A DNA stretch of 45,523 nt, filler included, from Jimgerdemannia flammicorona (taxonomy: Eukaryota): NCBI GenBank assembly GCA_003990765.1. It is 2 parts of 2 records of this genome, joined end to end, with 100 filler letters (N's around TTAATTAATTAA, not from the genome) between each part and the next. Parts side by side here need not be neighbours in the genome. Positions count along the whole stretch, not along the records: positions 1 to 22,713 come from RBNJ01001220.1; 1 more part is not named here. The stretch is one strand, 5' to 3'. The stretch's first letter is position 1. Each line of letters opens with the position of its first letter. The position numbers and the translations under genes were made by a program. The notes under the pieces were generated by a model, which saw only the letters and a list, made by a program, of their open reading frames with translations, was not told where the DNA came from and did not search any database. Shown piece after piece: positions 7,866 to 45,302 of the stretch.

Positions 7866-9022
7866 TTGGACACAATCAGTACATTTCTCATCCCTGGATT
7901 AATCCTCACCCATAAACACACTCTCCAAGAATTCTTCCAAGAACTTCTTGACTTCACCATTGTACATATGGAGACCATTCTTGAGTCTACCACTATGCTT
8001 GCTACATTCTTCGATGAAATTCCTCCTACACTTTTCAAGCAGATCCTCACTTCCCCTTACTTGAATTTGTAGTGTGGAATTTGGCTTTGAACTGGGCGTG
8101 TCACCACACCAAGGTCTTGAAACCTATGGTCAAATCACAAGTGAAGATGAACCTTGCCAGTGAAATACACGAAGACACACACTCGGAGATAGTGCCAAGC
8201 AATGTGGCTTCCGATATAGATGCAGGTGTGATTGATCAACTACTCATTTCATCTCAGCAGCTCATGGTGCTGAATGCCACTCTTAGACTACTAACTCTGG
8301 CGATCTATTTCACCCTTTTTGAACTGGAGCAGTTTGCCAATTCTGTCAAAACTCTTACATTCTTCCTATCGATACGTCAATCTATTGATAGAGGTTCTTT
8401 TCTCAGCCAAACAATACATCGACTGAGACCCTGAGAATAAAGAGCAAGGATAAGAGTGCTTTTTCTTCAGACATAGCCAATTATGAGTCATTGATGCTTT
8501 TGAAACATGGATTGTAGAGGTAAAAGAGATTGCTAGCTGTAATACGCTAGCAAATTTGCAGTTCAACAAGCTATACCAAGCTTCCGTTCATGGCTTCCAA
8601 GCCTCTACCTTTCATCAAAGGTACGACAATCAAGGACCCACACTCATGCTCATAAAAATTTCTGATGGATATCTGTTTGGCAGTATCAATTTCAACTCCT
8701 GGCAATCAGGCATTGGCAACTTTGTTAAGTGCAGCACAAATTTTCTGTTTGCTTTGAAAGATAGACTGCACTAACAACAACCAGTGAAATTTGGCATCAC
8801 CAATCATGAATATGGAAGCTACAACATAACAAGTCAAGGGCCTACATTCGGATATGGGTATGACATATGTATTTATGATCAGCCAAATAGTACATTGTTA
8901 TTCCACAGCAAATTACCAAACAGTTATTCAGTACTGGTACATTGTACACGGCCAGAAATTTCACCATTACAGATTATGAGGTGTTCTATTTCGAAGGAGT
9001 GATGACCTTTGATAATATTTAA
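7866..9022 (+). pseudogene. BACK + TLDc domain protein pseudogene (BTB-BACK-TLDc type; N-terminal BTB not seen)
   Basis: BACK-like LFKQILTSPYLNL..VWNLALNW; TLDc motifs FNKLYQASVHGFQASTFHQRYDNQGPTLMLIK..GYLFG, NFLF, GPTFGYGYDICI, FTITDYEVF; stops and frameshifts. Confidence 0.82.
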
Positions 9023-9378
9023 GATTGATGGAGTGCTGAAGAACGGTGCATAAACATTCATTTGTTTATAGGGCATTGGTACCCTTATTTGTCCTGAAAG
9101 GATTGCATATTAGTGAATTCTTCTCAAATGAATCCCAGACAAGCATCTTATTTGTTACATTCCTTTATATAGTGTGATGTATGTAATTGACAATGGAGTA
9201 CTGGTGATTGCTAAGATCAGATGACATAATGGCATGATAATCAAATAGACAGCCTGACCAATTAGGTGATCACCCCAAAAGGAGTAATGATAATCTGAGC
9301 CAAAAGGAAGACTACATTATTTAAAGAACCATACTCCACCTCAGGAATCAGCACCAAAGAACAAGTACCCACCACACA

Positions 9379-10309
9379 ATGTCTCCTATCCACCGCCCCA
9401 ACCAGACCTCCCGCCGCTCTTCCCCCCTGCCTGGCCCAAAGACTCTAATCCTTGAAGCTATCAAGAAGGCTATTTGGTGCCCAGACACCTCTGAATATCT
9501 GAACTTCTATACCGAGGACCTTGGATACTTCATCAATTACCAGTATATGTATAATGACCCAACAGCTCAAAGATACCACTGAACGAATGACCCTCTAGTA
9601 TGATTACGAAATTGGACACCACCTTCATAATGAAACCCAAGAAGGCGACCAGGAAGACCTCATTGCCAAAATGTTAACCACCAGCCAGCTAATCAAGAGA
9701 GCCCTCTGTGTCCACCAAATCTTCCGCCATATTCTCTAGGCTATAGCACACTTACAAGGAGTGACTGCTGGAAGTCTTGCCTGCCTCTCAACTGAAGATG
9801 CAGACTGAATAGAATCAGAAGTAGCTGACTCTATTGGTAGTAACCAGGTTGCTGTAGGAAGCCAACAAACCGAGTCCACTCAACCAGGCTTTCACACTAC
9901 TCCACTCCGAGACAACCATCAAGATCACCTAATGAGTCTCATGGAAATCTTCGAAGGACCACCCATTACCATTACAACACGTGTTGGAGCAACCCCAATT
10001 ACTCACCACCCTGTCAGCTATAATTTACACCTCATCATTTGGGAACCAAATCAAGAAGTCCCAGAAGTCCCTACCAATATAGAAACTGGAGGATCTGAGG
10101 AAGAAGAAAAGGAGGAACAAAGAATCTACCAATCCTCTGTTCACCTTCAAGCAGTCCAAGGGTTGGAGAATGTCATCGAAGATGATTGGCCACAATTCTA
10201 CCCCCTCACCTCCTGGCCAGCGCTCCCACCCTTTGAAGAACGGAATGAAGAAGTTATAATCCAGCAAGATGATTGGTTCACTGATGAAGGGTACTTTACC
10301 ATTCAGTGA
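9379..10309 (+). pseudogene. unknown ~310-codon ORF within the probable LTR (one frameshift near 9580, several stops)
   Basis: ORF pieces 9379-9582 and 9932-10309 joined by protein-like sequence in the second frame; acidic/aromatic C-terminus. Confidence 0.55.
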
Positions 10310-10552
10310 TCCAACATCCATTTCCTTAGTCCAGTCAGCCAACGTTTGTCAGTGAGTCAGTAACATCCATTTCCAGTGATATTACCCCCAACAACTGAAT
10401 CCGGTACTAGCACTTGCCTTATCTCAATTCAGTGATCCAACATCCGTTTCCTCAGTCTGGTCAGCCAACATTTGTCAGCAAGTCAGTAACATCTGTTTTC
10501 AGCGATACCACCCACAACATCCATATCCAACACTAGCACTCATCTTATCTCA
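10301..10552 (+). repeat. 126-bp tandem duplication in the U3-like region
   Basis: ATTCAGTGATCCAACATCC...TTATCTCA at 10301-10426 and 10427-10552. Confidence 0.9.
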
Positions 10553-11406
10553 ATTCAGCACAAACAACTGCCACATCTATATTCAGCAATTAACCACCAC
10601 AATGTAGTATACCTTAGCCCCCCCCCATAGCTAGCAAAATTGTATAAATAACCCTATATCTTAGAGTGAATAAACCTCAGTCAGTTTGTGTTTAAAAGTA
10701 AAAAGAATTACAGAGAAACCTCACTGCCTCCAAGAGACCAGATAAATTTTGAGAACAAGATAACTAGAGCAATAATTGCTCAAGGTTTGAGTTAAAGAAT
10801 TTTCTCTTGCCATGGAAAATGTTAAAGACCCACCACTAAAGGAAAGCTGCACAAAAACTGCCAACTGCCACCAAGATCCCACCAGCCCAACCGTCATGCA
10901 TTTGACCCAACTGTCATGCATTTGGAACCAACCACCATTCGAGGTTCAAGACTGTGTATTCAAGACCTGCCATTCAAGTGTTAAGACCCCAGCCAAGGAA
11001 CCCAAGAATACTAGAACAAGACCACTAGTAAACGACCAACCACCAGAACCCACCCTTAAGTTAAGAACGAATGTTCAACCGAACCGTTGACCCAAACAAT
11101 TCCCTACTGCACCATGAACCACTTAAAGTCAAGACCATCATCCGCTTCAAATCAACCGCTTTAAATTCAAGTCCACCATCAAGATACCTGCCAGTATTAT
11201 AAATAATCGCCACCTTTACCATTGAACAATTGAGCCAACGAACAATCGAACTCCCACTATCAATTATCATACAAATCAAATGCACTGATCATATGACTAT
11301 CAACCCGTAACCATTGCAAATGCACTCATATCTATTGCGCGCTTCACCAAGTGGCACATTGAGCCATGCTTGAAGCAACTAGAGATACAAACTGCATGCC
11401 ACATTT

Positions 11407-11424
11407 TGGGGGCTCAACTGGGAA
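11407..11424 (+). promoter_or_regulatory. primer-binding site, tRNA-Pro type
   Basis: TGGGGGCTCAACTGGGAA versus the MLV tRNA-Pro PBS TGGGGGCTCGTCCGGGAT; 3 nt after the LTR-terminal CA. Confidence 0.75.
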
Positions 11425-11472
11425 AGTTTTCAAAAGACTTGACCATTTGGCTCAAGAACCCAGCTATCTACA

Positions 11473-14400
11473 GTGGAGAACTTAGCAGGACCAAGTCAGC
11501 AACCAAACCAGGGTCAGCAACAGCCCTCCTCAGCAGAAAAGAAAGCCCACACTCTTGTCAGAACAGTAGCCAGGACCCTATTCAACACCAGTAGCCAGAA
11601 AACTGAATCAGAAGAAAGAAGTGACCCAGATTATGGTTTGACTTCAAGAGAAAGGAGACAACTCAGAGGACAACCAGAACTGCCCTTTCAGATCCAAGAC
11701 TTAGGCCAAGAAGAAGAAGAGGATATCTCTGAGGAGTATCAGACCCTTATCCATAGGAAGAACTCAGACAGAAGTAACTACATAACTACTGTCATTACTC
11801 AAGTTACTCCACTGGACTAGGTATACTTTGAAACATCAGAAGGAGAAGAGGACTACCATCCATATCAACCAGAGCAAGACGACAATTGGGGATCAGACTA
11901 TCAAAGGGACAAATTCAACCTATATTATTATCCAAACAGCGACACAAACCCACAACAAGGTGAACAAGACCTCACTACTTCACAACAGCAAGGGGCAGAC
12001 GAACTCACTATCAGTTATATCAGTCCACTCCCACCATCAGTTGCTCGAACTTCAGTACCCTGGTCACTTACACCTCACCACTATCATCAGTCAATCAGAA
12101 GATCTCCACTACTACCCAGGACTTCAACCCCAGCATTAATTAGAAGAATCAGATTACCCTTACCCTCACTAAGATACCACCCTCTGCCAGCACCACTAGT
12201 TCATCAAGTACTAGCACCACTACCTTCCCCATCACCCCAAGGATCTGCCAGATCCCCTACCCCTGAACAATACTCAGATAGTGAAGACAAGCCAGACATG
12301 AGCTACCTTCAGAAGTTCCATGGTGCAGACAATGAAGATATTGAGGAATTCTTTGGAGAAATTGAAGTTCAAGCAGCCGCCAAACAATGGGATGCTGTAA
12401 GAAAACTCAGAATTATGGAGTCACTCCTGAGAGGATAAGCCCTACAGAGATATAATTAAGCCAAGCAAGCTGGAGGAGGAATCCATGCAGAGGAACTGAA
12501 TGACGGCCTTCAACCTGATAGGAACCATGTAGCAAGGTACATGATTCACAAAGCCTGGCTCCATGCCCAGTTCAATGGATTCGAGTGCCAACAAGAAGCA
12601 CAGGAGGCTTTGACCTATATGAGCCAAGCTGCCAATGAAACTCCCAAGAGTTTCTACTATCGGATTCAAGCTCAAATGATCAAGGTGAACCTTCAACCAG
12701 CAGTCCAACTGGCTCTAGCCTCAACTACCTTCCTCAATGGCTTATACCCAGAACTCTGAAGGCAAGTTATCAGGATGGGATATCAAAACATTGAACAGCA
12801 AGTTGCTGGAGCACAAGGATGTTGGGAAGCAGATTATAGATCAGTATAACAAGTACAAGGCTATCATGAGCCAATCTGAGCTGAAACCCCAAGGACTCAA
12901 GAAACAACTATGGAGCAAGAGAATGCCTTCCTCAGAGCCCAGATAGCCAACTATGAGAACAGACCAGCACCCACAAATCTGACTCCATTCAGGCAACCAC
13001 AGCAGCAGCCACCATCAAGAGTCCAAGAAGATCCCATGACAATGCTCACCAAGCAAATGAAGGACCTGGCCATCACGGTTGCCCAGCTGAAGAACCAAGG
13101 TAGAAGACAACAAGACTATCATCATGATAACAGACCAGACTACCGGCAACAAGACAACAGAGGTCCTGCTCCCGCACTACCAGCTGCAACTATAGTCTCA
13201 TCAGCGACTAGTTCCTATGGTCTCACCTGCTTCAACTGCGGAAATCAAGGCCACATCCAGAGGAATTGTCCAAGGAACCAATCCACCCAGTCCAATGACA
13301 GAAATGTCAATCTCTTTCAGGTAGATGAAGAGACTCAGGAAATGGAAGAAGAAGCAGCCTGGCTCTATGGTCAAGAAGATGACATCTACCTATACTTCGA
13401 GGCTTTTTCATCCAAGGTGACATGGGAAGCTGCCCCTGCAGAGACCAGAGGATGAGGAAGACCACAAAGGAACCCCCCACCTCAACTGCCAGTAACAATA
13501 TCCACAGGCAAGCATCCACGACATGGCCATTCTTCTTCAGACACTCCACAAGAACAGGAGAAGCGAGTTAGAAGAGATACTCCTGAACCAGAAGCTGGAC
13601 CATCTAGGACAACCCCCAGCTCTTCCCCCCTGCCAGACCTTAAAGAAGATGAGCATATGAGTATAGAATCTTCAGCTGACGAAATGCCCATCAGGAATGA
13701 GAGACTACACCCCAAGGTACTAAGACACCAAAGAAGCAGCAAGCCCCATACAGCAGTCTCACTTTGGGAATATATCCACCTACAGAATGCTGGTCTTACA
13801 GTTGAGCAGGTCCTCAAGAATGTACCAGAGGTCAGGCGAAAATTCCTGAAAGAAGCCAAGGAAGATACCAAGAGACTTCCAGTCCAAGGGCCATACACTC
13901 AAGAACCTAGCACTATCCACACAGCCCATGAGAGCCAGCGACATGAACATCAATCTACAAGACTTGCCAATGGAAAAGTGCATGGTGAAAATGCCAGAAT
14001 TCTTGTTGATACTGGAGCAGTAGTATACATCATCACCCAAAGGATGTTGGAGTGAATTGGATGGGGAATAGATGAAGAAACCAAAGCAAGAGTTATCATG
14101 GCCAACGGATCAGCTTCCACACCCCTTGGACTTGTCAGAGACATCTCCATTCAAGTCAGAAAGGCCTGCCTCAATGTACCCAAAGCTGTCATGACTCCCG
14201 CAACCTCCTATGACCTGATCCTGGGAACTGACTGGTTAAGCTGAGTTGGAGCCAATGTAGATATCAAGAAACAACTCCCGGTCTTCTCCATTCATGGACA
14301 GAAGCACAAGGTGCCCATTGACTCGAAAGGATTATCCAAAAGGATGAATCAAGCCTCAGAAACAGAATGGCAAGGACATGGCAACACTCCCACTACTACT

Positions 14401-17050
14401 GAGGATGAAAGTGAGGCCAATTTCCTGCAAGAACTAGGAAGTAATTTTGATGCCCCAAGGGACCAAGAAAGCGAACAAGAAGACTCTTTCATTGGAGTTA
14501 ATGGTGTTGAAGGTCTGGAAGAAAGTATTGATAGAGCCATTAATGCAAGGGCAGCACTTGAGTTCGCAGGACCATCTGCTCAACCACCACTACCACTGGT
14601 AGAAAATCGGATCATGTGAGCCTTTTGTCAAGGCATATGTGAACATTTCATCAGCTTCCACTCACCAAGAGATGATTGCAGCAATTGCCGAATCCTGGAT
14701 CTCAAGAAGGTTCCAATGCTAGAAATTGATGACAAGGACAAATTGAAGCAAGCACTATCCCACAGCCGAATACAACCTCCAACCCCAAAGACCTTCAAGA
14801 AGACCTATAAGGGAGGACAGAAGATCCTCGCCCACCAAACATTCAAGTCCCTTACTATCGAAGGAGAAAGCAGCAGCTCTTACACAATCACCCAGGCCCT
14901 CCAGATCACACAGCCCACCTATAACAAGTATCAGAAGAGATTCCCTACCAGTAGGGAAGTCAAACAGTGAAATGAAAACTTTGTCAAGAAGGGACATTGT
15001 GATTGTGGAAAGACCTTTACCTGCCACTGGTGTGAACATTGAGATGTTCACCTTAGTGAAGATGTCTACAAGAGTTGAGTCAAGAGAAAGGATCCCACCC
15101 TGCAAGAACCTCAAATTCACTGGGCCTGTCAGAAGTACAAAGAAATCAACCATGAAGGAGATTGCAAGTTCAAGAGCAAGATCTCTATCTGGGACCTACC
15201 ATTGGAAGTTCTTGCCATCATTCGCTGGTACTGCTGCCCTCATCAAGGAAAAGAAGGTATCAATCTTGCCTTTATCCTTATAGAAGCTCTGGACCCTCTA
15301 GGAAAGACTGGATTCAATTACACAAGAAACTCAAAGACAGGAGCTTACTGGCCTTTCTTCAAACTGGAGCACATGGACTTCTCACCTACAATGGCAACAG
15401 CTGAAGCGCCATTTCTCAAAGCTCAACCAATTATCCAGGTCAAGCTGCTTTCACCCTGGGCACAGCCTCCTCTTGCACAAATAGAAGGATCAGTTGGTTA
15501 TGACCTCTGCCTCCCCTACCAAGCAAGAATCTGACCCAGAAGTACCAGGATTTTTGACCTACAGATTGCACTCACTATACCACCTGGGTATTATGGACAA
15601 TTGGCCTCAAGATCCTCATTGGCAACCAAAGGAGTCACAGTAGAAGGAGGAGTCATCGATCAGGACTACTGAGGTCCCTTGAAGGCCATTATCCACAATT
15701 CTAGTAGAACCAGCCAATTCTTCAGTCCTATAGAAGCCATCTGCCAAATCCTGTTTATCAAGACATCACAGCTGACCATCCAAGAGGTAGACCAACTAGA
15801 AGATATCAACAGAGGACAAGAAGGCTTTGGAAGCACCAATAGAAATCTACGGACACCACCTATCGAGGTTCATTTAGCAACAGTTGCTCAATTCTGACAA
15901 ATGAGACCCCACATCTGTCCCCCAATCCGAGCAAGAGAAGACATCCTCCTGCAGCCCTACCAGCAAAAAGGCCTAGATGTGCACCTACTAGTAGAAGCAA
16001 ACAACTTGATATTTGCACCATCACTGGAGCTTCAAAAGGAATACCACATCCTCCTGGCTGAAGAACGAATTCATAACCAGATGTCACCAATCCACATCCC
16101 TATCAGAAACTTGGGCTTCAAAGTGATAACTATCCCCAAGGGAACAACACTGGGATATTTTGAACCACTGATAGACACCTATGAGGAAGAAGTCTTCAAA
16201 TTCTTGGGAAATGGTAAGCCCTCTCCGGTGAGACTGACGGTACCAGGGAGGAAGACTTAGCAAATTCAGCAATCAAAGCTGTCGATATCGAGACAACTCT
16301 AATCAAGGACCAGCAACAACAGATACAGGAGTTGATAGAGGAGTACAAAGATATATTTACCACCACATATGATAACTTCCCACCATATCAATATGGAGAA
16401 CACCCTATATATCTGGAGATGCAAGACCAATCTGACAATGACCCTACCGAACACCACATCATCTGATTGAATTCGAACAACAACACATAGATGAAATGCT
16501 ACGAAATAGAGTCATCAGACCATCATCAAGCCCCTGGGCTTCACCAGCAATCATAGTACCAAAGAAAGGAGGATGGAGATTAGTTGTGGATTTCAGAAAA
16601 CTCAACAAAGTCACTACAGAAGATGCCTACCTACTGCCAAGAATTGATGACCTCATCAATGCTCTCGAAAAAGCCAAGTACATGACCACTACTGACCAGT
16701 TCCAAGGATTCCAAGTAATACCCATTGCCAAAGAAGATATCTGCAAGATGGCCTTTATCACCAGATGAGGACAGTATGAATACCTACGAATGCCCTTTAG
16801 ACTCTGCAATGTACCTGCCTCATTCCAATGAATGATGAACTATGTCTACCGGGACCTCATTGGAAGAAATGTAGAGTATATATAGATGATGTAATCATCT
16901 ACTCTGAGACATTCAAGCAGCATTTGCAAGACCTCCGTGAAGTATTCAATACCATTTGAAATTCAGGACTCAGACTCAATGCCAAGAAGTACTTCTTTGG
17001 AAAACATCAAGTCGAATATCTAGGATATATTGTCTCAGCTCAAGGACGAC
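11473..17050 (+). pseudogene. gag-pol: Gypsy gag-pol polyprotein pseudogene (single frame from gag to ~16260)
   Basis: ORF fragments at 11473, 12541, 12910, 13657, 14311, 14716, 15202, 15679 and 15901 share one frame; capsid-like KFHG..NEDIEEF (~12313), CFNCGNQGHIQRNC (~13228), ILVDTGA (~14000), RT SSSPWASP, DFRKLN, LPRIDD, YIDD (16879-16890), YLGY. Confidence 0.9.
15433..15840 (+). pseudogene. dut: trimeric dUTPase domain within Gypsy pol
   Basis: all five motifs: VGYDL, ASRSS, GVIDQDY*G, ICQI, RGQEGFGST; two internal TGA stops, the one in DY*G at the conserved Arg. Confidence 0.92.
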
Positions 17051-17129
17051 CTTTCACCAGTAACATTCGGGTGACACAAGACTCAGACAACACTTTTTAC
17101 AATGTTTTTGGTGTCCGACAACTAATAAC

Positions 17130-19044
17130 ATAGATGGCAATGATCGATCTGGTGAGCATACTGGCCAGGGGGGTGATGGCGCCTTTGGCTGGCAGCAGGT
17201 GGGGAGGAGGGGAGATGGTTTGGGGATGCCAGGGGCCTCGATGGCTAGCCGAGGCCCCAGCGGTGGAGGGAGGGGAGGTCTGCGGCAGAGAGGAGGGGAG
17301 CAGTCGACCTTTGCTGACAAGGTCAGGATGGGGAAGATAGCTTCTGGGCTGGATAGTTGGCTGGGCCTGGGGAAGGCATCAATGGCTACTGCTGGAGGTC
17401 AGGGAGGTACACCCCAGGGTACTTCTGGTGGTAGGGAAGGGGCCGGAGTAGGGGCTGGAGATGTGACTGTTGATGGGGCTGTGACTGGGGATCTGGAAAA
17501 AAATCCAGATGTGACAGCGGTTGGCAATTCGGGACTTGGAGTGGGCACGAGGCCCAGGGACCTGGTGGATGGGGTGACGGGCATGGTGTTGGCCCTGTTA
17601 CTCAAGAAGTCGAGGTCCGAATTCATGGTCACGATGTGCTTCCGGGGCTTGGCAGTGACGGTGAGGATGATTTTGGGGCTGGTGGTACAGGAGGCTAAGG
17701 GAGCGGCATCGGTGAAGTTCTTGAGGGGAAAGGAAGGGGTTGAGGTGGGGTTTGAGGAGGAGGATGCCTTATTGGCAGCCATGGAGAAGGGGGTGATGGT
17801 TGGCGGGGTTGTGGTCCCTATGGCCCGGTGTATGCGCTGGGACCCCCGGGTGGTACAGTTGACGGTGTTGGACTTCCCTATGGTGTCGAAGGAAAGGACC
17901 AGGGAGTTGGTTGTGGAGGCGATCAAGGAGTATGGCGAGATTGTGGATGTTGAGTTCAAGGTCTGGGAGGGCACGGAGCTTAGAACTGGAGACGTCGATG
18001 TCAGGGTGAGGCTGGCTGGAAAGGAGAATATGGGGAAGTCGAGGGACTGGCCAGCAGTGCTGAGGTGGGGACCGGTGGAGTATAATGGAGTATAAGGTCA
18101 CTAGGGTGAAGGGGACTCCGGAGGAGGAGGAGGACCTGTTGGAGGCTCTGGAGGATCTGGAAGGGGCAGTTGCAAGGAGGAGATTAGCCTGGACAGAGTT
18201 TGAGACTAGGACAGTGGTGGGGGAGGTGGATGGGAAGAGGGTTCAGATGGAGAAGGGGGCCTGGGAGAAGTTGCAGGGGAGGAGGATTCAGAAGGAGTTG
18301 TTGGCGAAGTTGGGCAGGGGTGGGGTTGGTGGAAGCTCCAGGGCAGGGGCTGCAGGGTTGCAGGAGAGTGCCTGGGCTGAAGGGGGAGAAATGGCCCAGG
18401 GCAGGGCTCAGATTGGAGTCGGGGAGGGGAGGGAGGATAACTTGGAGGTGGATGCTGAAATGGGAGAAGGTGGGTGCTCTCAGTATAGTGTTCTGAATGG
18501 GGCAGGAGGCGAGGATGTACCGGATGAGGAGTGGGATGAGTCAGTGAGGAGGAGCGCGCTGGTGGACCCCGAGGTGGATGGGGGATAGATTGCTCAGGGG
18601 GCGGCAGAGGCAGTAGATGAGGAGAAGTGGATGTGGAAGACCCTGGAAGGGGTAGTGGCTGAGGAGCTGGGGGGTGAGGACTTCAGGGTGATGGAGGAGA
18701 GGCATTGGGAGGAGATTCTATATGGGGAAGAGGTGCCAAGGAAGATGAGGAATGAGATCCTAGCTGTCCTCCTAGAGTCGGTTGAGTATTAGGTTGATGA
18801 TCAGCGAGAGGAGGAGCTTAGAAGGATTGTGAGTGATAGGGCACTTGTCTTGTGGAACTCGAGGAAGGGACTAGAGAAGTGGCGAGCAGTCTGCTTGGAT
18901 TACAGGGTAGATATGGAGGAGGTGGACAGGGTGGAGTGTCAGGAAATCTTGGGGGCACTGGATGCTCGGGATATTGCAGAGGGTGAATTGGAAGCTGAGT
19001 AGCTCTTGGACTTGGCAAGGGATGAGATGAGCATGGAATTATAG
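17130..19044 (+). pseudogene. LINE ORF1 (RRM-like), disrupted
   Basis: colinear with 43337-45271; start codon reads ATA; 10-bp duplication frameshift at 18076-18095; stops. Confidence 0.88.
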
Positions 19045-19075
19045 GTTGAGGTCTCTTCTACAATATCTATTCAAT

Positions 19076-22000
19076 ATGAACAGTACAACTAGGATATTCT
19101 CATTGAACATTAATGGGTTACGGGGGGAGGCTAGGAGGAAGTACATCTTTGGTTGGCTTCGGGGTCTGGATGCGGACCTCTTCTTCTTACAGGATGTTCG
19201 GTATGATGCAGATGTGGATTTACAGGACTGGACTAAGAAAAGGGGGGGTGCAGCAGTTTGGAGGGGGAAAGTGGGTATTCTTGTTTGGAAAGGGATGGGG
19301 GACATTGGGGATATTGGACATTGGGGGTCGCGGGTGGTGTGGGGAGTATGGAAGAGGCCTGGATGGGGCTTGCTGATGGTTGGGTCTTGTTACTGCCCAG
19401 CTGAGAGAGGGGAGAGAGTGGATTGGATTCACAGATTGAAAGAGGTTGGTTTATTGGGAGAAGTTGGGTTTGACTGTATGGGGGGGGACTTCAACATGGT
19501 ATGGGATAAGGAGTTGGACAGAACTGATGGAGGGAGAGGCATGCGAGGTGAAAGTAGTGGGTTGGCGGACTGGTTGGAGACAGAAAGGTTGTGTTCTTTA
19601 GTGGACTCAGAGAGATATTTTTGGGCTGATCAGCGGGTGTACACCCATTGGGCAGCAGGACTGGGCTCTAGGATTGACTGGGTTCTAACAGCAGAGTGTT
19701 GGGGAGCAGATATCTGAATGGTGCTGGGAGTTATATAGTGTCCATGGTCTGATCACTGGGGGTTGCTTGGAGGGGGGAGGTTTGGGGGAAATGAGGATGG
19801 GCCCAGACATTGGCAGCTAAATTCTTCCTTGTTGGAGGATAGGGCATTGTGGGAGGGTTGGGAAACAGAGGTGGTTGGTATTATTAGCAGGTGGCGGGAT
19901 CAAGGACTGGTGATTGGGGACCACTGGAGAAGGTTGAAGGTGAAGGCTCAGGGGTATTGGAGGGAAGCAGGGAAAGGAAAGTGTGCTCAGCAAAGGGGGC
20001 AGGTGATGTGGGCCTCACGGCATTTGGCAGTACTCATGGAGAGATGGGTGGGTGTGCTGGAGGATAGGGCCAAGACTGATTGGCATATTGCGAGGATCCG
20101 GCAGGAGGTGGAGGAGCTCAAAGGAGTGTTACAGAGGGAGGAAGAGGAGCAGTTGCAGGGGATGGTGGCCTGCTTACGCTGGCAGGGGCTTGAGGAAGGG
20201 GAGAGACCTACCAGGTTCTTGTTACGGTTATTACAAGCACGACGAACAAGGCAGCAGTGGGAGGGAGTTTTGGATGAGAATGACGAGCTGGTGGTGGGGA
20301 CTCTGGCGATTTTGGGCCTATTGTGATCCCAGTGGGGGAACCTTTGGAGTGAGGATGAAGGGGGACTGGATGCTCAGGACATTGACAGGCAGCTGGGGGA
20401 TTGGCATCCGGACCCTGTCATGGGACTGGGGGCATTGGGGGACCTGGTGAGTGGCGAGGAGATTTGCAAGGTAGTGGCTTCTACGAGTAAAGGGACAGCT
20501 CCAGGAGAGGATGGACTCCCCTGGAATTTTTGGCAGAAGATGACAGGGGTGCATGAGGTACTAGAGGAAATGATGGCCATGTGTGATGAAGTTCTTTGGT
20601 CTGGTGTCTGGATTGGGGGACAGCACTTGGGGCTGGTCGCCTTACTATATAAGAACAAGAGCAGGAGGGAGGATTGAAAGAACTGGCAGCCGATCATGCT
20701 TCTGGACATGGACCGCAAACTGGTGACGAAGATCTTGGTGCTGCAGTTGCAAGGGATTGTGCAGCAAGTGCTTGGTTTGGAGCAACGTGGGTTTGTCAGT
20801 GGTCAGTTGATTCGCGATGGGACAGCCTGGGTTCATGGAGTGATTGAAGGTGCCCGGGCTACAGGGGTGGATGGCAGATTGGTATTTCTGGACCAGGAGA
20901 AGGCTTATGATAGAGTGCGGAGAATATGGCTGGAAGGAGTGCTGAAGCAGATTGGTATCCCCCTGGGGTTCCGAGGTTCATTGATCAGACTCTTGGAGGA
21001 CAGTCAGGTGGCATTGGTCATCAATGGCCACTGGGGGGTGACCTTCCCCCTGGGCCATGGGGTGCCACAAGGGGACCCCTTGTCACCCATATTGTATGCC
21101 CTTTCCCTAGAGCTACTACTGGACAGGATTCAGCGTAAGATTGGAGGTTTGGACATTTTAGAGGTGAACTGGAAGGTGGGGGCCTTTGCTGATGACATGG
21201 TGGTCAGACTGGGTTCCTTGGGGGATATTGGGGAGTTGCAGAGGATGGTGAAATGGTATGAGCGGGGTTCTGGTGCTAAACTGAACTGGCACAAATGTGA
21301 GACGCTGGTGCTGGGCGCTGGGATTGTAGGTGGTGATGTTGTTGGGATGGTGGTTCCAGCTGGTGAACCAGTGCGCTACTTGGGGATCTACTTCTCGGTA
21401 TTCGGATCTCTTCTTCTCCGGGCATGGTGGGACCGTAAACTGCTGGAGTGGAGCGATGTCTTGATACAATGGGGAGGCCGGCATATGTCCCTTGCCGGAA
21501 GGGTGATGGTGTTGAATGTGTACTGGATGCCAAAGCTGTGGTATGTTGGATATCATTTGGATTTCCCACTGTGGGTGGTTAAGGGGTTGTTGAAGATGGC
21601 GAGGTCATGGATTTGGGGAGGGCAGTGGAGCCAGGTTGGTTGGGAGGTGCTCAAACTGCCCTTGGAAAGAGGTGGACTGGGCTTAGTGAACTTTACTAAG
21701 CGGCTTTTATGTCTGAGGGCCTGGTGACTAAGGAGGGCGAGTGAGCTTAGAGGTCGGGAGTGAGTGCCACTCATGCAGAGGTTGTGGGAGGTTCAATACT
21801 CCCCACGTAGTGGCTCCAGCGACCTGCTTGCAATGGTGGCCATGGAAGGGAGCCGGAGGATGCGGTTTACAGGCTTTTGGTGGGGAGTGGTGGATGGAGC
21901 TAGGAAAATCGGCCTTCGGTGGCGAGGTGATGAGGCTGAGGAGGTTTGGGGACTGCAGATGTGGAGATGGGATAGGCTTCTATTGGGTGGTGCTCTGGTG

Positions 22001-22713
22001 GAGGACTTTCAGCTTGGCAAGGGTCTGGAGTGCCTGCGAGGCCTAGGTGGAGACCTGTGGCCTGAAGCCTGGCAGAGGGTTGGAATCGGGGAAGAGTGGG
22101 ATTGGAATGGACTCTGGCTTTGGAGCAAAAGGGTGAGGCAGTGGCTGTCCCCAAGTTCTGGTTGGTGTAGTGGTAGATCCTATGGCGGAATGTGATGTTG
22201 AACTATTGGTCTGGTCACTTGGTGGATGGTGGGGTATTCGAGTGCGAGGATTGCTTCAATGTTGGTCAGGAGGGAGGAGTGGTACAAATACCTGAACATT
22301 GGCTTAGCAAGTGCGAGGTTTTGGGGGAGTTTTGGAGATGTATAATGGACAAGCTAGGGTTGGGGGCTGGGGGAGGGAAGGGAGGGGGGAGATGGGGAGA
22401 GCTTCACCTGTGATTAGTGGGTGGGGTCAGGGATGAATGGCTGACCCTTGGTTGGGCCTTGGCTATGTAGGTTGGATTGGCGGAGCATTGGGTGCATGTA
22501 TTTGAGGACGGGCGTCGGGTTGGGGTTAGTGAAAAGGTGGCATGGTGGGAATAGTTGCTATTGGACATTTTAAATAGCTGGTGGCAGGGTTGGGGTATGG
22601 GTGGGGGGTTCCGCAGGGGTTTGGTGCAGTGTATCTCCCAGAAGAGTGGGGGGAGGGTTCGAGTAGTGGGTGGTCAGTTGGTGCTTGGGCAGGGGGAGGT
22701 AGAGGGAGAGGGG
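19076..22713 (+). pseudogene. LINE ORF2: APE endonuclease + reverse transcriptase + C-terminal Cys/His motif, disrupted
   Basis: SLNINGL, GGDFN, SRIDW, SDH; APGEDG, QRGF, FLDQEKAYDRV, GVPQGDPLSP, FADD, YLG, GGLG; CEDC...EHWLSKC. Confidence 0.93.
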
Positions 22714-22813
22714 NNNNNNNNNNNNNNNNNNNNNNNNNNNNNNNNNNNNNNNNNNNNTTAATTAATTAANNNNNNNNNNNNNNNNNNNNNNNNNNNNNNN
22801 NNNNNNNNNNNNN
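22714..22813. other. artificial assembly gap/linker
   Basis: 44 N + TTAATTAATTAA (stops in all six frames) + 44 N = 100 nt. Confidence 0.95.
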
Positions 22814-22917
22814 AGACAAAAAAAAAGAGAGGGCAGTACTTGATGGGTGGTGGGGGAGGGGTTTGGCCTATATAGTCTAAGATCTCTTCCAATAAAAATC
22901 CACAGGACATTGAGTCC

Positions 22918-22995
<78 letters not shown>
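22814..22995 (+). mobile_element. probable LINE 3' UTR and poly(A) tail
   Basis: G-rich stretch, AATAAA at ~22890, long A run 22922-22995. Confidence 0.6.
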
Positions 22996-25137: not shown

Positions 25138-26084
25138 TTTTTTTTTTTTTTTTTTTTTTATAGTTACTTGGACTCTGTTCCTTTATTAATACCCATCTAT
25201 CCCATATAAATACAGTGATCCCACCCCCTATCCAATCTCCCTAGGGGGACTCCTCCCCTCTACCTCTTCCCAATGAAAGACCACCTTGTCTAACACCATC
25301 GCCACCCTTCCACCACTCTGCTCACAGATCCTTACCACCAAACCACAATACTGACCCCCCTGAGGGCCCCAACCCACCCACCATCCAGTCAGCAGATCCC
25401 CCAACAGCTCCTCCCACCTTAATACCTTCTCTTGCAGCCCCAACCGCTGCCCCTCCTCAAATACAAAAAGCCAATGTCCAGTTAATCCCACCCATACTGC
25501 TAGTACCCACCCTACAGTGAGCCAACTATCACCCACCCCACCCACAAGCCAAGTCCTCAAGTCCCCCCAGCGGCCCCCCTCCCCCCCCAGCCTCCTCCCT
25601 ACACCCAATCTATCCCCTATTTCAGCCCAAAACTCCTCCAAAACCTCACACTCCCCCAGCCAATGTTCTGGCATCTGTACATGACCCTCAGCTCACCCAA
25701 CATCGTAACACTCTTCACAGTCGAATCATCCACCCTCTACCAAATGCCCCATGTGGAAATTCAGCATGACATTTCTCCTCAACATTCTCTACCATACCAC
25801 CCAGAACTTAGGAGGCAGCCACTGCCATACCTCTGCACTCCAAGACCAGATACCTGCCCAGTCCCACTCCTCGCTGATCCCAGCTGCCTGCCAGCCACCT
25901 GGCCAAAGATCCTGGCCAAGCCCCTGCTGATACTCCACTCTCTCCCCAATATCGAACATAGCCAGTGAAGTATCCCCCAGGAGCAGCCTATCCCAACACC
26001 ACATATTAGGCCCCCACACTGCTTCTCCCTCATTGCCTTGCCATCGCAGGCCAATCTGGTGAGCTCCATCCGCCACTCCCCACC
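25138..26084 (-). mobile_element. 5'-truncated LINE, copy 2, subfamily B
   Basis: poly(T) at ~25137-25158; ORF2 C-terminus ...EHWLGEC...PPREIG*; 16-bp TSD AGCTT(A/G)AATTATTCAT at 25122-25137 and 26085-26100. Confidence 0.92.
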
Positions 26085-27522
26085 AGCTTGAATTATTCAT
26101 TATCTCTGCCTAATTTACTACTTTTATCTTATTCACCAACTCTGCCTTCATCTTAATCTTATATAGTCTTTTGCTATTTAACTGCTCTCTCATTGAAGTT
26201 AGAAGTTACAAACTTACTGATACATATTGACCTTATTTAGGCATAATATAGTCTGCTTGATTTTGTATACCTTCATAGTCTAGTATAGTCTATCTGTAGT
26301 CTGCTCCTGATTTTGTACACCTTTATGGTCTACAGTCTGTCTGTAGTTTGCTACTCCTTAGTTTTATAGAACTGAGGAAATTTATTTACAGCTTGATATA
26401 TATTACTCATGACTTGGTACTTATTGTTCATACTGAGACATATTTTGTTTATCTTAGAATATAATCTGTTATCTTTAGATATGAAGAGATTATGGTAAAG
26501 GAGAGTAAAAAAAGACATAATTCTTCTAGATAAAGATCTCTTTTTATATCTGCAATGTTCATAATAGACATATATATACAGATGTTAAAAAGTCTAATAA
26601 GTGAATATAAAGCTTACTTACTTATATTTAGTTAATATGATAAAGTACAAGTATATTAAACAAGTATATATTAAATAAGTATATATTAAGCAAGCATATT
26701 AAGCAAGCACATTAAGAGAAAAAGTGTAAAGCCAATCAGATAAAGAATTTAAAGAATTCTATTTTAGACTAGTATGTTTCATATTTATGAACTTACTGTT
26801 AAAATTCATATTATCCTTTAAATTCTTCCCTACTTCAAATCTAATATCAATATAAAGCTTTTTTGCTCATATTGTAATCTAAAGTACAAATCTGCCTCAG
26901 GATTAACTTGACATATCTATAAGATGCATGATATACTTATATAATATTAGAATGACAAATCAATCCTTGAATTTCCAGTTTATCAAGATTTTAGTAACTT
27001 TAATATTATACTATTATTATTAATAAATTTATCTATAGTTTATAAGTTAACCTTAAATTCTACATATATTTCAAGTTGGAGTAATTTATATAAATGAACT
27101 TGAAAGATTTCAGATAATTATACTAAACATATATATAATTTAAGATAATATCAGTATGATAGTCTATTTTCAATTCAAGAATAGAAAAGTTTATTGTTTA
27201 GCAAAAATGACAATTTAATTTAAAATTAGAGAAGCCCATCTACTATATTGGAGTTTGGTAAGGATTATATTATTCACAAACCAATTGGTGATCAGATTAT
27301 CAATAGCAAGAAAGTACTTATATAATATAACAAATTTATTTCTAAACTCAGATAGATACCTATATATAACTGATATGAATAATCCTTTATATTCTTGAAA
27401 GAATGATAGAGAAATTTGGTTTATAAATCTATTATTCACCTTTCTCCTATAAAATTCATATTACACCAACTTCAAGTAATGGTTTTGACATAACTCAGAG
27501 AAAAGATACTATAAAAATATTA

Positions 27523-28418
27523 TTGAGCAAGAGTTCCAAGGAGTATACTGGGTTGGGTGGATCTGGAGTATTTGGCTGGCAGCAGGTGGGGAGAGATTAT
27601 AGTCTGGAGTTGGGGAATTTTGGAGGGTTGAAGGGTGAAGAAGGCTCTGGAGGAGGTTCAGTGTCAGATAGAACTAAGGGTAGGCCAGAACCCTCCAGCT
27701 TTGTGGACAAGGTAAAGGTGAGTAGATGGCCAGCTGGAACTAGAGCTGGTGCTGCTGAGGGGAAGAGCAAGGCTAGCATTAGGAGGGGGAGTAGTACTCA
27801 GGTGGGGGAGGTGAGCATAGGTGCTGAAGATACTATGGCTGGGGAAGTGACTGTTGATGAGAGTGTGATGGGGAATCAAGAAAAAAAAAAAGATATAATG
27901 GCTAATAGCAAGGTAGGGCAGGGGTTCCCAATGTGGAAGGGAGACCTGGTAGATAGTGTGGCAGAGCTGGCAGTAGCACTATTGCTCAAGAAGTTAATCT
28001 TGGAGTTTACAGCTATCTTGTGCTTCTGGGGCTTAGTAGTAATGGTGAGGATAGTCCTGGGGCTTATCTCAAAACAGGTAGCTGGGGCAGCCTCAGTGAA
28101 GTTCCTAAAGGGCCTAGAGGGGGTTGAGGTGGGCTTTGAGGAGGTGGGCCCACTGGACAAGGCTCTGAAGACTGGAGTGGTGGTCAGAGAGATAGTGGTC
28201 CCTATGATATAGTGCTTGAGGTAGGACCCCAGAGTAGTGCAGTTACTAGTGAAGGGGGTACCTATGGTGACAAAAGATGAAACTAGGAGGAGGGTGAAGG
28301 AGGTAATGGCAGAGTATGGTGATGTAGTAGATATAGGCTTCTAGATGTAGGAGGGGACCACCTTCAGAATGGGAGACATAGATGTCAGGATTCAACTGGC
28401 TGGGAGAGAGGCCACAGG
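27523..28418 (+). pseudogene. LINE copy 3 ORF1, 5' part
   Basis: homologous to 43337-44260 (FGWQQV, FVDKV, AASVKFL, VEVGFEE). Confidence 0.85.
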
Positions 28419-29313: not shown

Positions 29314-29393
29314 GCTCTTTTCTGAAATACCCATCTCCATATTTTATTAAATTTCATTTTTTACATGGTCTCCCCCTAAAAAACACCCATACC

Positions 29394-29505
29394 TGCATGC
29401 AACCCGCCTGCATACAACTCGTCCGCACACAATCTATCTGCATGCAACCTGTCTGCATACAACCCGTCTGCACACAACCCATCCACATGCAACCCATCCG
29501 CACAC
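29394..29505 (+). repeat. 15-bp minisatellite
   Basis: TGCATGCAACCCGCC-type unit, about 7 copies. Confidence 0.85.
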
Positions 29506-31092
29506 TTATCTCAATCCCTCAGATCAGGGCTCAGTTCCATTGGAAAGGAGAGTTCAAAGTTACCCGAGTTCAACCATGTCCGGCATCTGATCAAATAGAG
29601 AAGTTCGAGGGCAAGATATTTAGTATGAGCAGTATCAGTATCATCATCAAGGCTTGGGGATCTACATTCGAATCAGAGCCAATCGTTCTCGACCAAGGGG
29701 TCCATTGATCAGTAGGAGTAACTAACAATGAAGAGAACCATATCTTTATTAATGAATGTAGAGAGATGGTTGCAATGGTGGTAAGAAACCTCTATAGTAA
29801 CAAGCTTTGCTACCACATCAACAAGATTTGCAAGGATTGTGTCAAATACCGGGTAGCAGGAAAGAGGGGGTGAAAAAAGCAAGAAGGGGAGGTTTGGATG
29901 GGAATTGGGTATACCACAACACTGGCGAAGGGTGGGTTCCAAAATTCCCTGCACTTGTCTCCCTTTTTTTTTACTCCTCTTCAGATAAATCACACTCTTT
30001 GCCAATATACTCTTTTTGATACAAATCCAGAGATGCATAAGATTCTGTACCCCTACTGGAACTTTAGAAGTGCTGTCGAAGAGTAAACTACACATGAGCA
30101 TGACACAGCCTGTATAGCAATGGCAGCTATGATCTGGGGTTCTTTGAGCAGATTGGTAGAGCATATGGTAGGCCTGCTTGGTGGTGATCTCAGTGCAGCT
30201 ATATATACATTCTTGGTGCAATTTAGTATATCATATGAGGTAAGGAGCTCCACTTTTTTGAGGTGCTGCAGCCTGGGGGATTTCTGTGGCCCAGGGGGTT
30301 TCTGCCCCCCTGTACACAAAAAGGACTAACTGGTTGCTGTCTGTTTTGGTAGGTTTCCAAGCTGGGGCTCCCGGGGCTGGACCAAGGGCAGGCATCTACT
30401 AGCACAGCCTGGCAGTATGAGGTCCTGGGCCAAGGGTTCACCCAACCATATACTCACATCACATCAGGATATATTGGGTGCAACCATTCTCTGCCCACAC
30501 ATACAGACAACAATGTCACCTCAGTAATGTTTTATATCTCGGAAAGGAAGGGCCCAACCTGGAAGAATAGCAGTAGAGTCTGGTATGACCTCACCTATAG
30601 TTTCAGGGTCCCATTTGTGGTCAATACGACTATTCTCTTCCAACCACATAACCACCATAGCACCGTTACCTTTGAGGAGAGCTTGGATATAACAGTTATC
30701 ATACTTACAATAGATGATAGGCTCATCAAGGCCTGGGACTGACAGGTGGAGCAGTTTTTGTGAGGGTAAGGTAATCTTTTGCAAGGGATAGGCAGTCTTT
30801 TGTGAGGGTTAGGTAGTCATTTTGTGCAGGTTGGGCAGTCTTATGTAGGGGGTTGGGCCGGGTGCCTCTTCTGTAGCACTAGCTTAGCCATTATGCAGAG
30901 CCCTACTGGCCCCTTGACCCTACTCTGCAGTACTGCCAGTGCAGTACTATGGTGTAAGGCCAGGGCACCCATGGGACCCGAACCGGTGATAAGGCCCGAA
31001 TCTGTAGTGGACTTCGACCACTAGAAACGCCCTCTGACCACCAGAAGCACCCTTCAACCACTAGAAGCACTCTTCACCCTGGACTTCTTGGT

Positions 31093-31750
31093 GGCTTGGG
31101 GCTGCCCCCTATGCTACTGGCAGAGGGCCGCAAATTTTGCGTACTCCCTCTGTCTGCCCTGCCCATCCTGGATACTTGTGGCTTGGGGCTTCCCCTTGCT
31201 GCCAGCAGAGGGCTACAAATTTTGCATACTCTCTCGCTGACCCTGCACCCATCAACCCTGCCAACTGACCCTGTCCACTGACTCAGGTGCTGACAGCTTG
31301 GGGCTGCCCCTCACTGCTGGTAGAGGGCCGCAAATTTTGCACACTCCCTCTACCTGTCCTGTCCATCTCAGACACTTATGGCTCAGGGCTGCCCCTTGCT
31401 GCTGGCAGAGGGCCACAAATTTTATGTGCTCCCTTTGCTGACCCTGCACCCACCAACCCCACTGACTGACCCTGCCTACTGACCTGGACACTGATAGCTC
31501 AGGGCTGCCCCTCGCTGCTGGCGGAGGACCACAAGTTTTGCATGTTCCCTCTACCAACCCCCCTGACTGGGACACTTGCAGCTTGGGGCTGCCCCTCACT
31601 GCCGGTAGAGGGCTGCAAATTTTGTACACTCCCTCTGCCAACCTGCCCACTGACCTGGGTACTGACAGCTTGGGGCTGCCCCTTACTGCTGGCAGAGGGC
31701 CACAAACACTATGCACTCCCTCCACTATCACCGCCAACCCTGCCGACTAC
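31093..31750 (+). repeat. GC-rich minisatellite with alternating ~85/115-bp units
   Basis: core GCTTGGGGCTGCCCC...GGCAGAGGGCC(G/A)CAAATTTTG recurs at ~31093, 31180, 31295, 31380, 31496, 31580, 31667. Confidence 0.88.
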
Positions 31751-34579: not shown

Positions 34580-34900
34580 TGTGGAGGATTTGGATTGGAG
34601 GATTTAGTTGAAGGATTCAGATGAGGATTCAGATTGAAGAATTCGAATTGGAGGATTTAAATTAGAGGATTCAAATTGGAGGATTTAGATTGAGTGATTC
34701 GGATTGAGTGATTCGGATTGAGTGATTTGGATTGAGTGATTTGGATTGAGTAATTTGGATTGGGGTAGTTTGGATGGGTGATTCGGATGGAGCAATTCAG
34801 ATGGGGCAATTCGGATTAATCCAAGTTGATTTGGATGGCTTTGGATTTGAGATTCAGATCAAACTGTTATGTGATGAATCGAATCCAGATTTGATTCGAA
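34580..34900. repeat. hAT subterminal short repeats
   Basis: many GGATTGAGTGATT(C/T)-like ~14-bp units. Confidence 0.8.
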
Positions 34901-35881: not shown

Positions 35882-37919
35882 TGTAAGTGCACAACCTCCA
35901 AGCTACTGAAATCACATATCACCCACTGAACAAGCCACTGAAATCACACACAACCTCCAAACAAATCTGGAAATCACCTGTATGATCACAAAGCTGAGTC
36001 AATACAAAGTCATGGAGCACAAGATTTATATAAACAGAATCTTACCAATTAGGACCAAATATATATATACTGAGCACTAAGACATGTCAAAACAGAGAAC
36101 CAAAACAAACAACAACTACAACTTCTGAACATATACAAATATGACCACCAAGATCTATAACTACATCCGTGCTGACATTTGGAATGCTATTGTTAACCAA
36201 GCCACACCCTCTCTGCCCCTCATGAATATCCATAGTCTAGCACCCCTCTACTTCATAGAAGCCTAATGGAATGCTCTGAATATGCTTAATGAAGTCCACT
36301 GGATCAGACAAATCTCAAGCTACTACTAGATTGGCTGCCTCCTAGAAGATATGGTCAAACACCACCATGATATGGACATTACTCAGATATCTCAACACCA
36401 GAAGCTCATCACCTACAAACATCAAGAACTCTTCTATGAGTACAGCATCTTTATTCTCCATCTCCAAGTTACTACCAGTGAAATGGTCACTATTCTGTTC
36501 TATGGCCAAATTGATGACATGATCCAAGAACTCAACCACAAGTACCTCAAATACATTCAGACTACAGACAGAACCTTTCTGCACCCCAATGACCATATCC
36601 TGCAAATGCCTCAAGTCAGATATACTATGAAAGATGTCTATGATATAATCTACTTCAATGAAGATGAAGTAGAAGACAATGATCCCTCTGACACCAATAT
36701 GACCTCAAGCCAAGGATCTCTGCCAACTCTGATCATACCACCAACCTTGCTAATAAACTTACAACAGTTCATAACCACATACAAGACTTATTGGGACAAT
36801 GACCACTGGTATGAATACCAACTTACATTCACCACCAATTACTTCAACTATAATGAAGAGACCAGAGAACACAATCTGTATCTTCAGACAACCCTCGAGA
36901 TCGAACCAATCACTCCACCACCCAAGTATGAGTGACATGAACTACAGCCACTAGCTTACTACAACCCCATGACTCATAGCACTGTAACTTATAGAAGGTA
37001 TGCAGACAGTAAATCTGATGAAAGCAAAGATGATGTATCCCTCCTTCACCCACCAACTCTATATCCAGCATATGAGACAGATGATGCTATCTTGTAAGAT
37101 GGTGACCAAGTCCCAATATATTACTATCTCAGCGAATAAGGAGAATTAATCCACGAACAACTTTTCCTAGATAACTACTTTATTAGAAATGATATCATCA
37201 ATGGTGATGTCATCGAAGACTACTCAGACAGTATCTAAATCTATAGATAGCCTAGCAGTCATAGTATAGTTAGATTAACCTTGTATGATATGACTGTGAA
37301 CTGACTCAGCAGTCAGATGATCTCTCAACATATCAGATCACACTTGTACTATTATATTTCGACTCAGCAAGGTACTTAGTGCTATATTCATATTCAGCAT
37401 AGTCCAGATAGCCCCTCACTAGTATAAATACCCCCTCTCCCAGACCTCAGAATCTCAGACTTGCATAGACTTGAATACACAAGAACATTCCTGAATACTT
37501 CCCCACAATATCCCTTCACATAACTACTCCTAGTATAGCAATATCATGAATAGTGAATAACCCTATTTAATAACCCATAAACTACTCTTAAATAAATCTG
37601 CTCCCTGTTAGATCCCACTTCTAACCCCATCACAAAATTTCCTAATTGGGTATTGTCTGCAGCGATATGCCAATTCAACTAAGCTGGTCTTAGTTTCTTG
37701 TACTTCCTGAAATATGGAAAATCCTGAACATCCAGAACTAGTCTGAAAAAGGACTTTGGTTGAGACGTCAACTCAATCTTGAAATCAATAAGCATAGAGG
37801 ATGTACTCTATATGAAATTGATCTTGACCTTAAGAAAACAGTCTTCCAGAATATCCAGAACTTCTAAGAAACCCTTCCAGAACTACATAATGGTTATCTT
37901 AATAAGTAATCCTCTTACA
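35882..37919 (+). mobile_element. solo LTR (2038 bp) of a second LTR retrotransposon family
   Basis: TGTAAG...CTTACA termini; exact 5-bp TSD GCCCT (35877-35881, 37920-37924); LINE APE sequence resumes on the far side; TATAAATA at ~37423. Confidence 0.88.
36141..37238 (+). pseudogene. unknown 365-codon ORF inside the solo LTR
   Basis: one frame from ATG 36141 to TAA 37238 (includes ORF 36351-36935); no frameshifts; five internal stops, each one C>T change from CAA/CAG/CGA. Confidence 0.7.
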
Positions 37920-40900: not shown

Positions 40901-41329
40901 GATGGGGAGCATGGGCATTGGGAGGATTTGAAATCTTGGCTAGTAGAGAGTATAGAAAATGATTGGCTCACTATAGAGTGGGTGTTAGCTATTTGGGTAG
41001 AGCTGGCTGGGCACTAGCTCTTCATATTTGAGGAGGGGAAACAGTTAGGTCTGCAAGAGAAGTTGCTAAGGTGGGAGGGATTGATGGGTGATTTATTGAC
41101 AGGATGGTGGGTGGGCTGGGGTCCCCAGGGTGGGCAGTGTCACTGTCTGGTGGAAGGGGTATGTAAACAGAGTGGTGGACAGGTTGCAATAATTAATAAT
41201 CTTATAGTCTTTAATTGTGAAGAGATAGAGATAAGAGGGCCCCCTAGGGAGATTGGATAGGAGTGGGCTTATTGTATTTATATGGGATATAATGGTGTAT
41301 TAATAAAGGAAGGAGTCTAAGTGACTATA

Positions 41330-41397
<68 letters not shown>

Positions 41398-45271: not shown

Positions 45272-45302
45272 GTTGGGGTCTCTATTACAACATTTCTTCA
45301 AT

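Follow-up and report, generated by a model that had tools for sequence, protein, structure and literature searches.

Does the DNA that precedes the primer-binding site (PBS) of a decayed Gypsy retrotransposon in the fungus Jimgerdemannia flammicorona form a single long terminal repeat (LTR) with a gene of its own, and if so, is that gene shared with a second ORF-carrying LTR and what might it do for the element? Both LTRs lie in a window of 45,523 nucleotides, the whole stretch of DNA analysed here, which joins two records of the genome end to end. The features on which the argument turns are listed below.

9169..9172 (+): left target-site duplication (TSD), ATAG; 4-bp TSDs are typical of Gypsy family A, with ATAT strongly preferred.
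9173..11403 (+): 2231-bp 5' LTR, TG...CA, of a Gypsy family A element, delimited by copy search, flank comparison and paired LTRs.
9318..9325 (+): TATA-like box TATTTAAA, lying 61 nt ahead of the start of the ORF; a putative internal promoter.
9379..10309 (+): U3 ORF, of 308 codons in open copies, with a helical core at about residues 20-150 and a tail that is acidic and rich in proline and aromatics; in the present copy the frame is broken.
10301..10552 (+): a tandem pair of 126-bp units (81% identity) lying past the ORF stop and ahead of the main TATA box; a putatively enhancer-like position.
10643..10674 (+): main TATA box at 10643-10650, AATAAA poly(A) signal at 10669-10674; the presumptive U3/R region.
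11407..11424 (+): PBS complementary to tRNA-Pro; tRNA-Pro(CGG) agrees at its 3' end with 15 of the 16 nt at 11409-11424.
11425..17046 (+): decayed gag (CCHC)-protease-dUTPase-RT of family A, 93% to the full-length copy L031; its domains were identified on sister copies.
35882..37919 (+): a family B (chromovirus) solo LTR within a LINE, with a 5-bp TSD, GCCCT; its ORF, 36141-37238, has five internal stops.

The first-pass annotation had placed the start of the LTR at 9173 on its terminal bases alone, with a start downstream of the ORF, at about 10603 (TGTAGT), as the case that would sever the two. The window LTR opens with TGTGA at 9173 and closes with CCACA at 11403, followed by TTTTGGGGGCTC. 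When the DNA of the same genome was searched with it (40 scored places out of 2009 candidates), most matches were found to start at query positions 1-13, many with a piece ending at 2229-2231, and across 30 family-A loci the ends of the copies are conserved while their flanks are unrelated. No examined copy begins near 10603, and the downstream start was rejected. The window element itself is interrupted in its RT by a LINE that begins at about 17047, and its 3' half, 3' LTR and right-hand TSD lie outside the window (the contig ends at 22713), but the 3' duplication is present in the full-length elements G000:C1912 and C669, which carry the LTR at both ends with 92.3% and 93.0% identity, C669 being flanked by ATAG on either side. 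Among the 30 loci, 11 have the PBS downstream, nine have a purine tract upstream and ten were initially classed as solo LTRs, of which L005 (an altered purine tract) and L020 (cut by an insertion) were later struck out; the true solo LTRs have a 4-bp TSD in eight of eight cases, ATAT in six. The PBS and polypurine tract (PPT) adjoin the LTRs as expected, with the tRNA-Pro match on one side, the purine tract before the 3' LTRs on the other, and two tRNA-Pro(CGG) genes of this genome (G000) that match the PBS. Copy ends, TSDs, PBS and paired LTRs thus agree that 9173-11403 is an LTR that starts at 9173. At 2.1-2.4 kb such LTRs are long for a fungal element, though not giant by plant standards.

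Two observations may be set beside these. About 200 bp upstream of the LTR, at 8601-8960, lies the remnant of a TLDc domain (PF07534, E 6e-11), and AT-rich, mitochondrial-looking tRNA genes, some of them clustered, were seen at L115, L125 (G000:C12139), L116, L118 and L131.

The differences between paired LTRs are almost all transitions (163 of 169 in G000:C1912, 157 of 160 in C669 and 139 of 143 in C1687), including, in counts not normalised for composition, many C/T changes that precede A and not only G. This pattern suggests methylation-driven or RIP-like mutation, because of which LTR identity would overstate the age of the insertions.

The decayed ORF of about 310 codons that had been reported at 9379-10309 is present there, ends in EEVIIQQDDWFTDEGYFTIQ and is broken by a frame change near 9550 and by stops at 9596, 9737 and 9806. 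It is part of the LTR, since the family copies span both and none starts after the ORF. The 308-codon frame is open in four of the 30 family-A loci, two of these being solo LTRs. Selection was counted on 47 aligned family-A copies, 44 of which were assigned to groups (28 to G1 and 10 to G2). Between G1 and G2 the net pN/pS is 0.17 (95% CI 0.11-0.24), falling to 0.06 over the first 175 codons, while shifted frames over the same DNA give 1.2-1.8; within groups the ratio is higher, about 0.55 in G1, as decay after insertion would lead one to expect. Indels common to at least three copies measure 57, 30 and 6 nt within the ORF, every one a multiple of three, whereas many of those outside it are not. 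Low pN/pS and frame-keeping indels together argue that the ORF was a selected gene while the element was active, and we regard it as almost certain that the U3 of family A carries a selected accessory gene. Other subfamilies (G2/G3) have longer frames of 353-358 aa with an in-frame upstream extension, as read from 20 stretches picked from search matches in a way that favours open frames; the pN/pS of this extension is 0.16-0.21, with intervals reaching 1. It probably does not hold the true start, as 28 G1 copies have a 1-nt deletion there and the homologs begin MP.

Whether the second LTR belongs to the same kind of element is answered by the internal regions. Family A has the order gag(CCHC)-PR-dUTPase-RT-RH-INT and a Ty3-like RT (best PDB match Ty3 RT, E 2e-69). 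The chromodomain and Tf2-type SH3 found at the integrase C-terminus of families B and C are absent from families A and E, so that A is a non-chromodomain Ty3/Gypsy element. Family B has its dUTPase before the protease, an integrase with both Tf2-type SH3 and chromodomain, a 5-bp TSD and a PBS starting TGGTAGCAG, which we take to be of the tRNA-Met type; PBS, TSD length and dUTPase position thus all set it apart from family A. RT identity between the two families is 37%, and a tree of 24 RT rows, drawn solely from this genome, places a 100/100 branch between them. The earlier supposition that both LTRs stem from one Gypsy clade has to be abandoned, as the RTs fall on opposite sides of the chromovirus divide; because the solo LTR at 35882 belongs to a chromovirus, carrying an ORF in the LTR is not the trait of one clade. 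The dUTPase of family A lies between protease and RT, at about 15450-16260 of the window as read on L080, and is followed by a second segment that resembles a degenerate dUTPase repeat and has no Pfam match.

Both elements are entangled with LINEs. Related G-rich copies with poly(A) tails, in which endonuclease and RT are found, occupy 17047-22990, 25200-26100, 27400-28300, 35500-41390 and 43270-45523; one interrupts the Gypsy RT and another hosts the solo LTR. A LINE ORF1 at 43283-45271 is open over 662 codons and has no Pfam match. The window also contains inverted repeats of about 200 bp (85-89%) at 832-1041 and 2245-2453, 1.2 kb apart and likely a DNA transposon or MITE, and tandem arrays at 29390-29509, 31114-31726 and 34623-34720 with units of 15, about 85-200 and 14 bp.

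Kinship of the two LTRs had also been suggested from three short DNA motifs occurring in both in the same order. The motifs are where they were said to be, yet they carry no signal of descent. The 42 9-mers common to the two LTRs compare with 36.6 +/- 7.7 in 200 shuffles, 51 of which reach 42. The first motif, CCAATTAGG, occurs at its LTR position in one of the 47 aligned family-A copies, where GACCCATTAGGTG is found in 30, and the CCAAT box that the first-pass annotation had seen is private to the window copy; at the matching place family B has CCAATCAGGA in 19 and CCAATTAGGA in 5 of 25 copies. The other two are generic: GTATAAATA is the main TATA box, and AGTGAATAA overlaps the AATAAA signal in A and probably also in B, at a different spacing (TATA to AATAAA is 26 nt in 28 of 29 A copies, and 122-168 nt, mostly 122-137, or 309-319 nt in B). 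With one motif private, the rest generic TATA and poly(A) signals and 9-mer sharing at chance level, shared DNA motifs were dropped as evidence of kinship.

The proteins tell of a relationship that the DNA does not. The ORF family is found in at least five Gypsy families, inside U3 in A, B and D and upstream of the PPT in C and E. A profile of family-A proteins, run against 1.84 billion representatives, gave eight matches altogether, among them P0011, P0012, P0014 and P0017 at E 4e-25 to 1e-5; a scan of metagenome contigs for the DNA context of P0003-P0029 found nothing, and these are known as proteins only. Family C, reached via P0011, is a chromovirus with an ORF of 269-275 aa between integrase and PPT, the stop of which abuts the PPT, outside an LTR of about 780 bp. 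In family D the LTR, of about 1.5 kb, encloses the ORF, and the integrase is of the non-chromodomain type and 56-68% identical to that of family E; as a side observation, the flanks of D insertions resemble the ATAT-type targets of family A. Family E, first seen among the own-genome loci examined as a weak match to an HMM of A, C and D, has a core-only ORF of 153 aa where pol ends, with an LTR of about 420 bp that does not contain it, and matches the A+C+D profile with an hhalign probability of 95%.

It is through these intermediates that family B is connected. Compared directly, the A and B proteins show no significant similarity (BLASTP E 0.27; hhalign probability 0.3%). The HMM of A, C, D and E scores three B proteins at 24-27 bits, a level that 0 of 1000 local shuffles of each attains (maximum 11), and the best profile comparison of this set with B gives an hhalign E of 2.8e-4 (probability 41%), against 0.021 when family E is left out; that family had been added for matching A+C+D, not for matching B. 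A common pattern runs Y-x-[IL]-G/R-x-x-L, then A-x-[KR]-x-H-x-x-F, then I-x-x-L-x-x-V. B-type ORF pairs likewise show pN/pS of 0.20-0.47 with a third-position excess in most (pairwise counts over 14 HSPs). On these profile scores, a remote homology links the A ORF to that of the solo LTR at 35882, one seen only through intermediate families. The proposed relationship of the two LTR proteins is thereby borne out, and the first-pass interpretation stands in part: the ORFs are homologous and have diverged more than the RTs, but the clades differ and in C and E the gene lies outside the LTR. More divergent B-type fragments (46-62% identity) at L005, L120, L152, L217 and L218 indicate that further families of this gene exist in the genome. 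The gene-carrying families are high-copy, with at least 118-150 scored places per search.

How did one gene come to sit in elements so far apart? The ORF core and the RT do not diverge in step: identities are 45% against 41% for C-D, 14% against 65% for D-E, 21% against 49% for B-C, 28% against 40% for A-C and 18% against 37% for A-B, the last pair agreeing with the earlier view of a fast-evolving product. That ORF divergence does not follow the RT suggests module exchange, which from these comparisons we consider likely but not proven; the ORF tree, in which long branches meet, leaves a B+C clade unrejected (p-AU 0.139). Just past the integrase stop, families A and C have in common a 258-bp segment (L034:1954-2210, L140:981-1236) that is 79-85% identical, while blastn finds no match between their pol DNA; the segment was not found in the examined loci of B, D or E, and an Rfam search of the 3' regions gave no match. 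Two of its predicted base pairs, columns 35:134 and 93:101, are changed on both sides between A and C, each change being a single event, and the covariation term is -1.75 kcal/mol. Its 3' half contains a 44-codon frame in which A and C differ at codon position 3 (7), position 1 (5) and never at position 2. The segment may be an RNA element, a small ORF or the product of recent exchange. Overall, the gene is probably a 3' module exchanged by recombination among co-resident Gypsy lineages. The trait is best described as a mobile 3' accessory gene, in or out of the LTR according to the position of the PPT, and a PPT upstream of the gene would have brought it into U3.

Searches with the protein itself brought no relatives outside this family. 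Scans of Pfam, PHROGs, NCBIfam and PDB sequences gave no credible match for the ORF proteins. An apparent match to a designed armadillo protein was set aside as a summed repeat score with no single significant stretch, and so was a presumed likeness to DUF3102 (PF11300), which has no match in G000 or in the Pfam scans. In the ESM Atlas P0001 had no usable match, and the family-C core hit only unnamed or unrelated clusters at 0.91-0.94. Structure prediction from a shallow alignment gave too poor a model (pLDDT 35); with 14 sequences, AlphaFold reached a mean pLDDT of 59, with residues 11-160 at 60-90 and all helical, and a low-confidence tail. Against the PDB and BFVD this model of mean pLDDT 59 had no Foldseek match at E<=0.001 (best VIA Z 3.9), an absence that does not make the predicted fold new. 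The tails of A, B, D and P0011 are rich in proline and aromatic residues and contain 16-24% D+E and 3-6% K+R; the core is not basic (K+R 9-13% against D+E 10-15%). The proteins of A, B, D and E lack any predicted membrane segment (maximum 19-residue hydropathy 0.03-1.21). An acidic composition rich in proline and aromatic residues is the make-up of acidic activation regions. The tail would be dispensable, because family E has the core without it.

A promoter-like box ahead of the ORF, as the first-pass annotation had proposed, recurs across families: TTATTTAA, 61 nt before the ATG, is present in 47 of 47 aligned A copies and in all subfamilies, GTATAAAT about 65-75 nt before the ATG in 16 of 16 copies of C, a TATATA-like run in 22 of 25 copies of B, and ATATAAAA in both of the D copies that were read. 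These boxes are sequence likenesses and putative promoters. The LTR could thus be a self-contained accessory gene, made up of a TATA-like box, the selected ORF, the main LTR promoter and a poly(A) signal; and as the ORF is wholly within the LTR in A, B and D, a copy of it is present in every 5', 3' and solo LTR. Transcription would start from the gene's own promoter and end at the LTR poly(A) signal, which is the weakest step of the scheme together with the supposition that the product is a soluble nuclear regulator. Its helical core might bind DNA or chromatin and its acidic tail might serve as an activator of the LTR promoter, on the model of foamy-virus Tas, a protein with an acidic activation tail. 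No recognisable DNA-binding motif emerged from the Pfam, PHROGs, NCBIfam, PDB and fold searches. From composition and layout we tentatively favour a transcriptional activator, at somewhat less than an even chance, and the whole chain, from selected U3 gene through exchanged module and own promoter to LTR activator, is held just as tentatively.

Other roles have to be weighed against this. The protein could be an anti-silencing or counter-defence factor that protects the DNA or RNA of the element against host methylation, RNAi or RIP-like mutation, its tail binding or decoying host proteins: the nearly exclusive transitions between paired LTRs speak of strong host pressure, rapid divergence between families and exchange across lineages fit a gene in conflict, and a gene copy in each solo LTR would raise dosage. 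Such a gene sits less easily with strong purifying selection on the core within a family and no positive selection in the regions tested, nor was any similarity to a known family found in the searched libraries, and we think this role unlikely, though less so than the other rivals. A post-transcriptional role, as in Rev/Rem-like export, packaging or assistance to reverse transcription, would have the protein bind RNA, for instance the 258-nt segment, which between A and C is far better conserved than the ORF or pol and has the two pairs that differ on both sides. The restriction of that segment to A and C among the examined loci, the lack of an Rfam match, a small covariation term built on single-event changes and a protein with no basic RNA-binding stretch make this distinctly improbable.

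Somewhat less probable again is negative regulation, either by read-through from upstream that occludes the main LTR promoter or by a protein that limits copy number. The upstream TATA-like box does aim at the main TATA 1.3 kb downstream, and the tail-less core of family E is what a repressor might look like, but the carrier families are high-copy and pure interference leaves codon-level selection unexplained. Many of the sense ORFs found from pol to the 3' LTR are env-like, according to one review (PMC7264820), which would commend an env-like gene were it not for the missing transmembrane segment in A, B, D and E; and the breaks in 26 of 30 loci would suit a neutral captured fragment without function had neutrality not been refuted by the net pN/pS and the frame-keeping indels, the breaks being the usual decay after insertion. 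Both of these we consider very improbable. Our preferred reading stays, tentatively, with an activator of the LTR promoter.

Several known systems share parts of this arrangement. Extra ORFs of unknown function occur within the internal part of plant and some fungal Gypsy elements, examples being the sense ORFs of Athila/Bagy2, Grande gene23, which has its own promoter and a nuclear product, and Boty (PMC7264820). They resemble our gene in being conserved extra ORFs at the Ty3/Gypsy 3' end that belong to no known protein family, and families C and E share their sense orientation and position between pol and PPT; the gene described here differs in lying wholly inside the LTR in three families, in being sense yet not env-like and in spanning chromovirus and non-chromovirus lineages. 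In MMTV, sag is a complete U3 ORF present in both LTRs (PMC12789967), a duplicated layout that our gene repeats (as in part does HIV nef). Sag is made from spliced RNA in a vertebrate retrovirus and is a type II membrane superantigen, whereas ours is a fungal-element protein without a membrane segment; no sequence link was found, and the likeness is one of layout only. Foamy-virus Tas is a transactivator driven by an internal promoter (PMC12789967), and so likewise a 3' accessory gene with its own promoter upstream, putative in our case, and the LTR promoter downstream; its promoter lies in env rather than in the LTR, and no sequence or fold match to it came up here in PDB or BFVD. The ORF3s of bdelloid rotifers are accessory ORFs common to unrelated retroelements (PMC5408684), a distribution that the paper reads as modular exchange; they are recognisable enzymes or env-like proteins and form a third ORF besides gag and pol, while our gene has no recognisable domain and enters the LTR. 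Searches of the open-licence PMC and bioRxiv literature turned up no description of a gene within U3 in fungal Gypsy elements.

What the accessory ORFs of retrotransposons do has yet to be settled (PMC7264820), and the present family offers small natural open-frame proteins for assay, including the core-only form of 153 residues. LTRs pass for non-coding, and solo LTRs for inert remains or at most promoters, yet here they carry a selected gene, held at hundreds of scored places in one genome, and five families with the gene on either side of the PPT provide a natural series for the entry of a gene into U3, comparable to MMTV sag. It is possible, if doubtful, that the Gypsy elements of this fungus have in common a so far undescribed family of regulatory proteins, carried on a 3' cassette that can be swapped across the divide between chromoviruses and non-chromoviruses, and that each solo LTR whose U3 has received the cassette is an autonomous promoter-gene-poly(A) unit able to activate or shield related elements in trans. 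If true, regulation in the style of complex retroviruses would have arisen independently in fungal retrotransposons.
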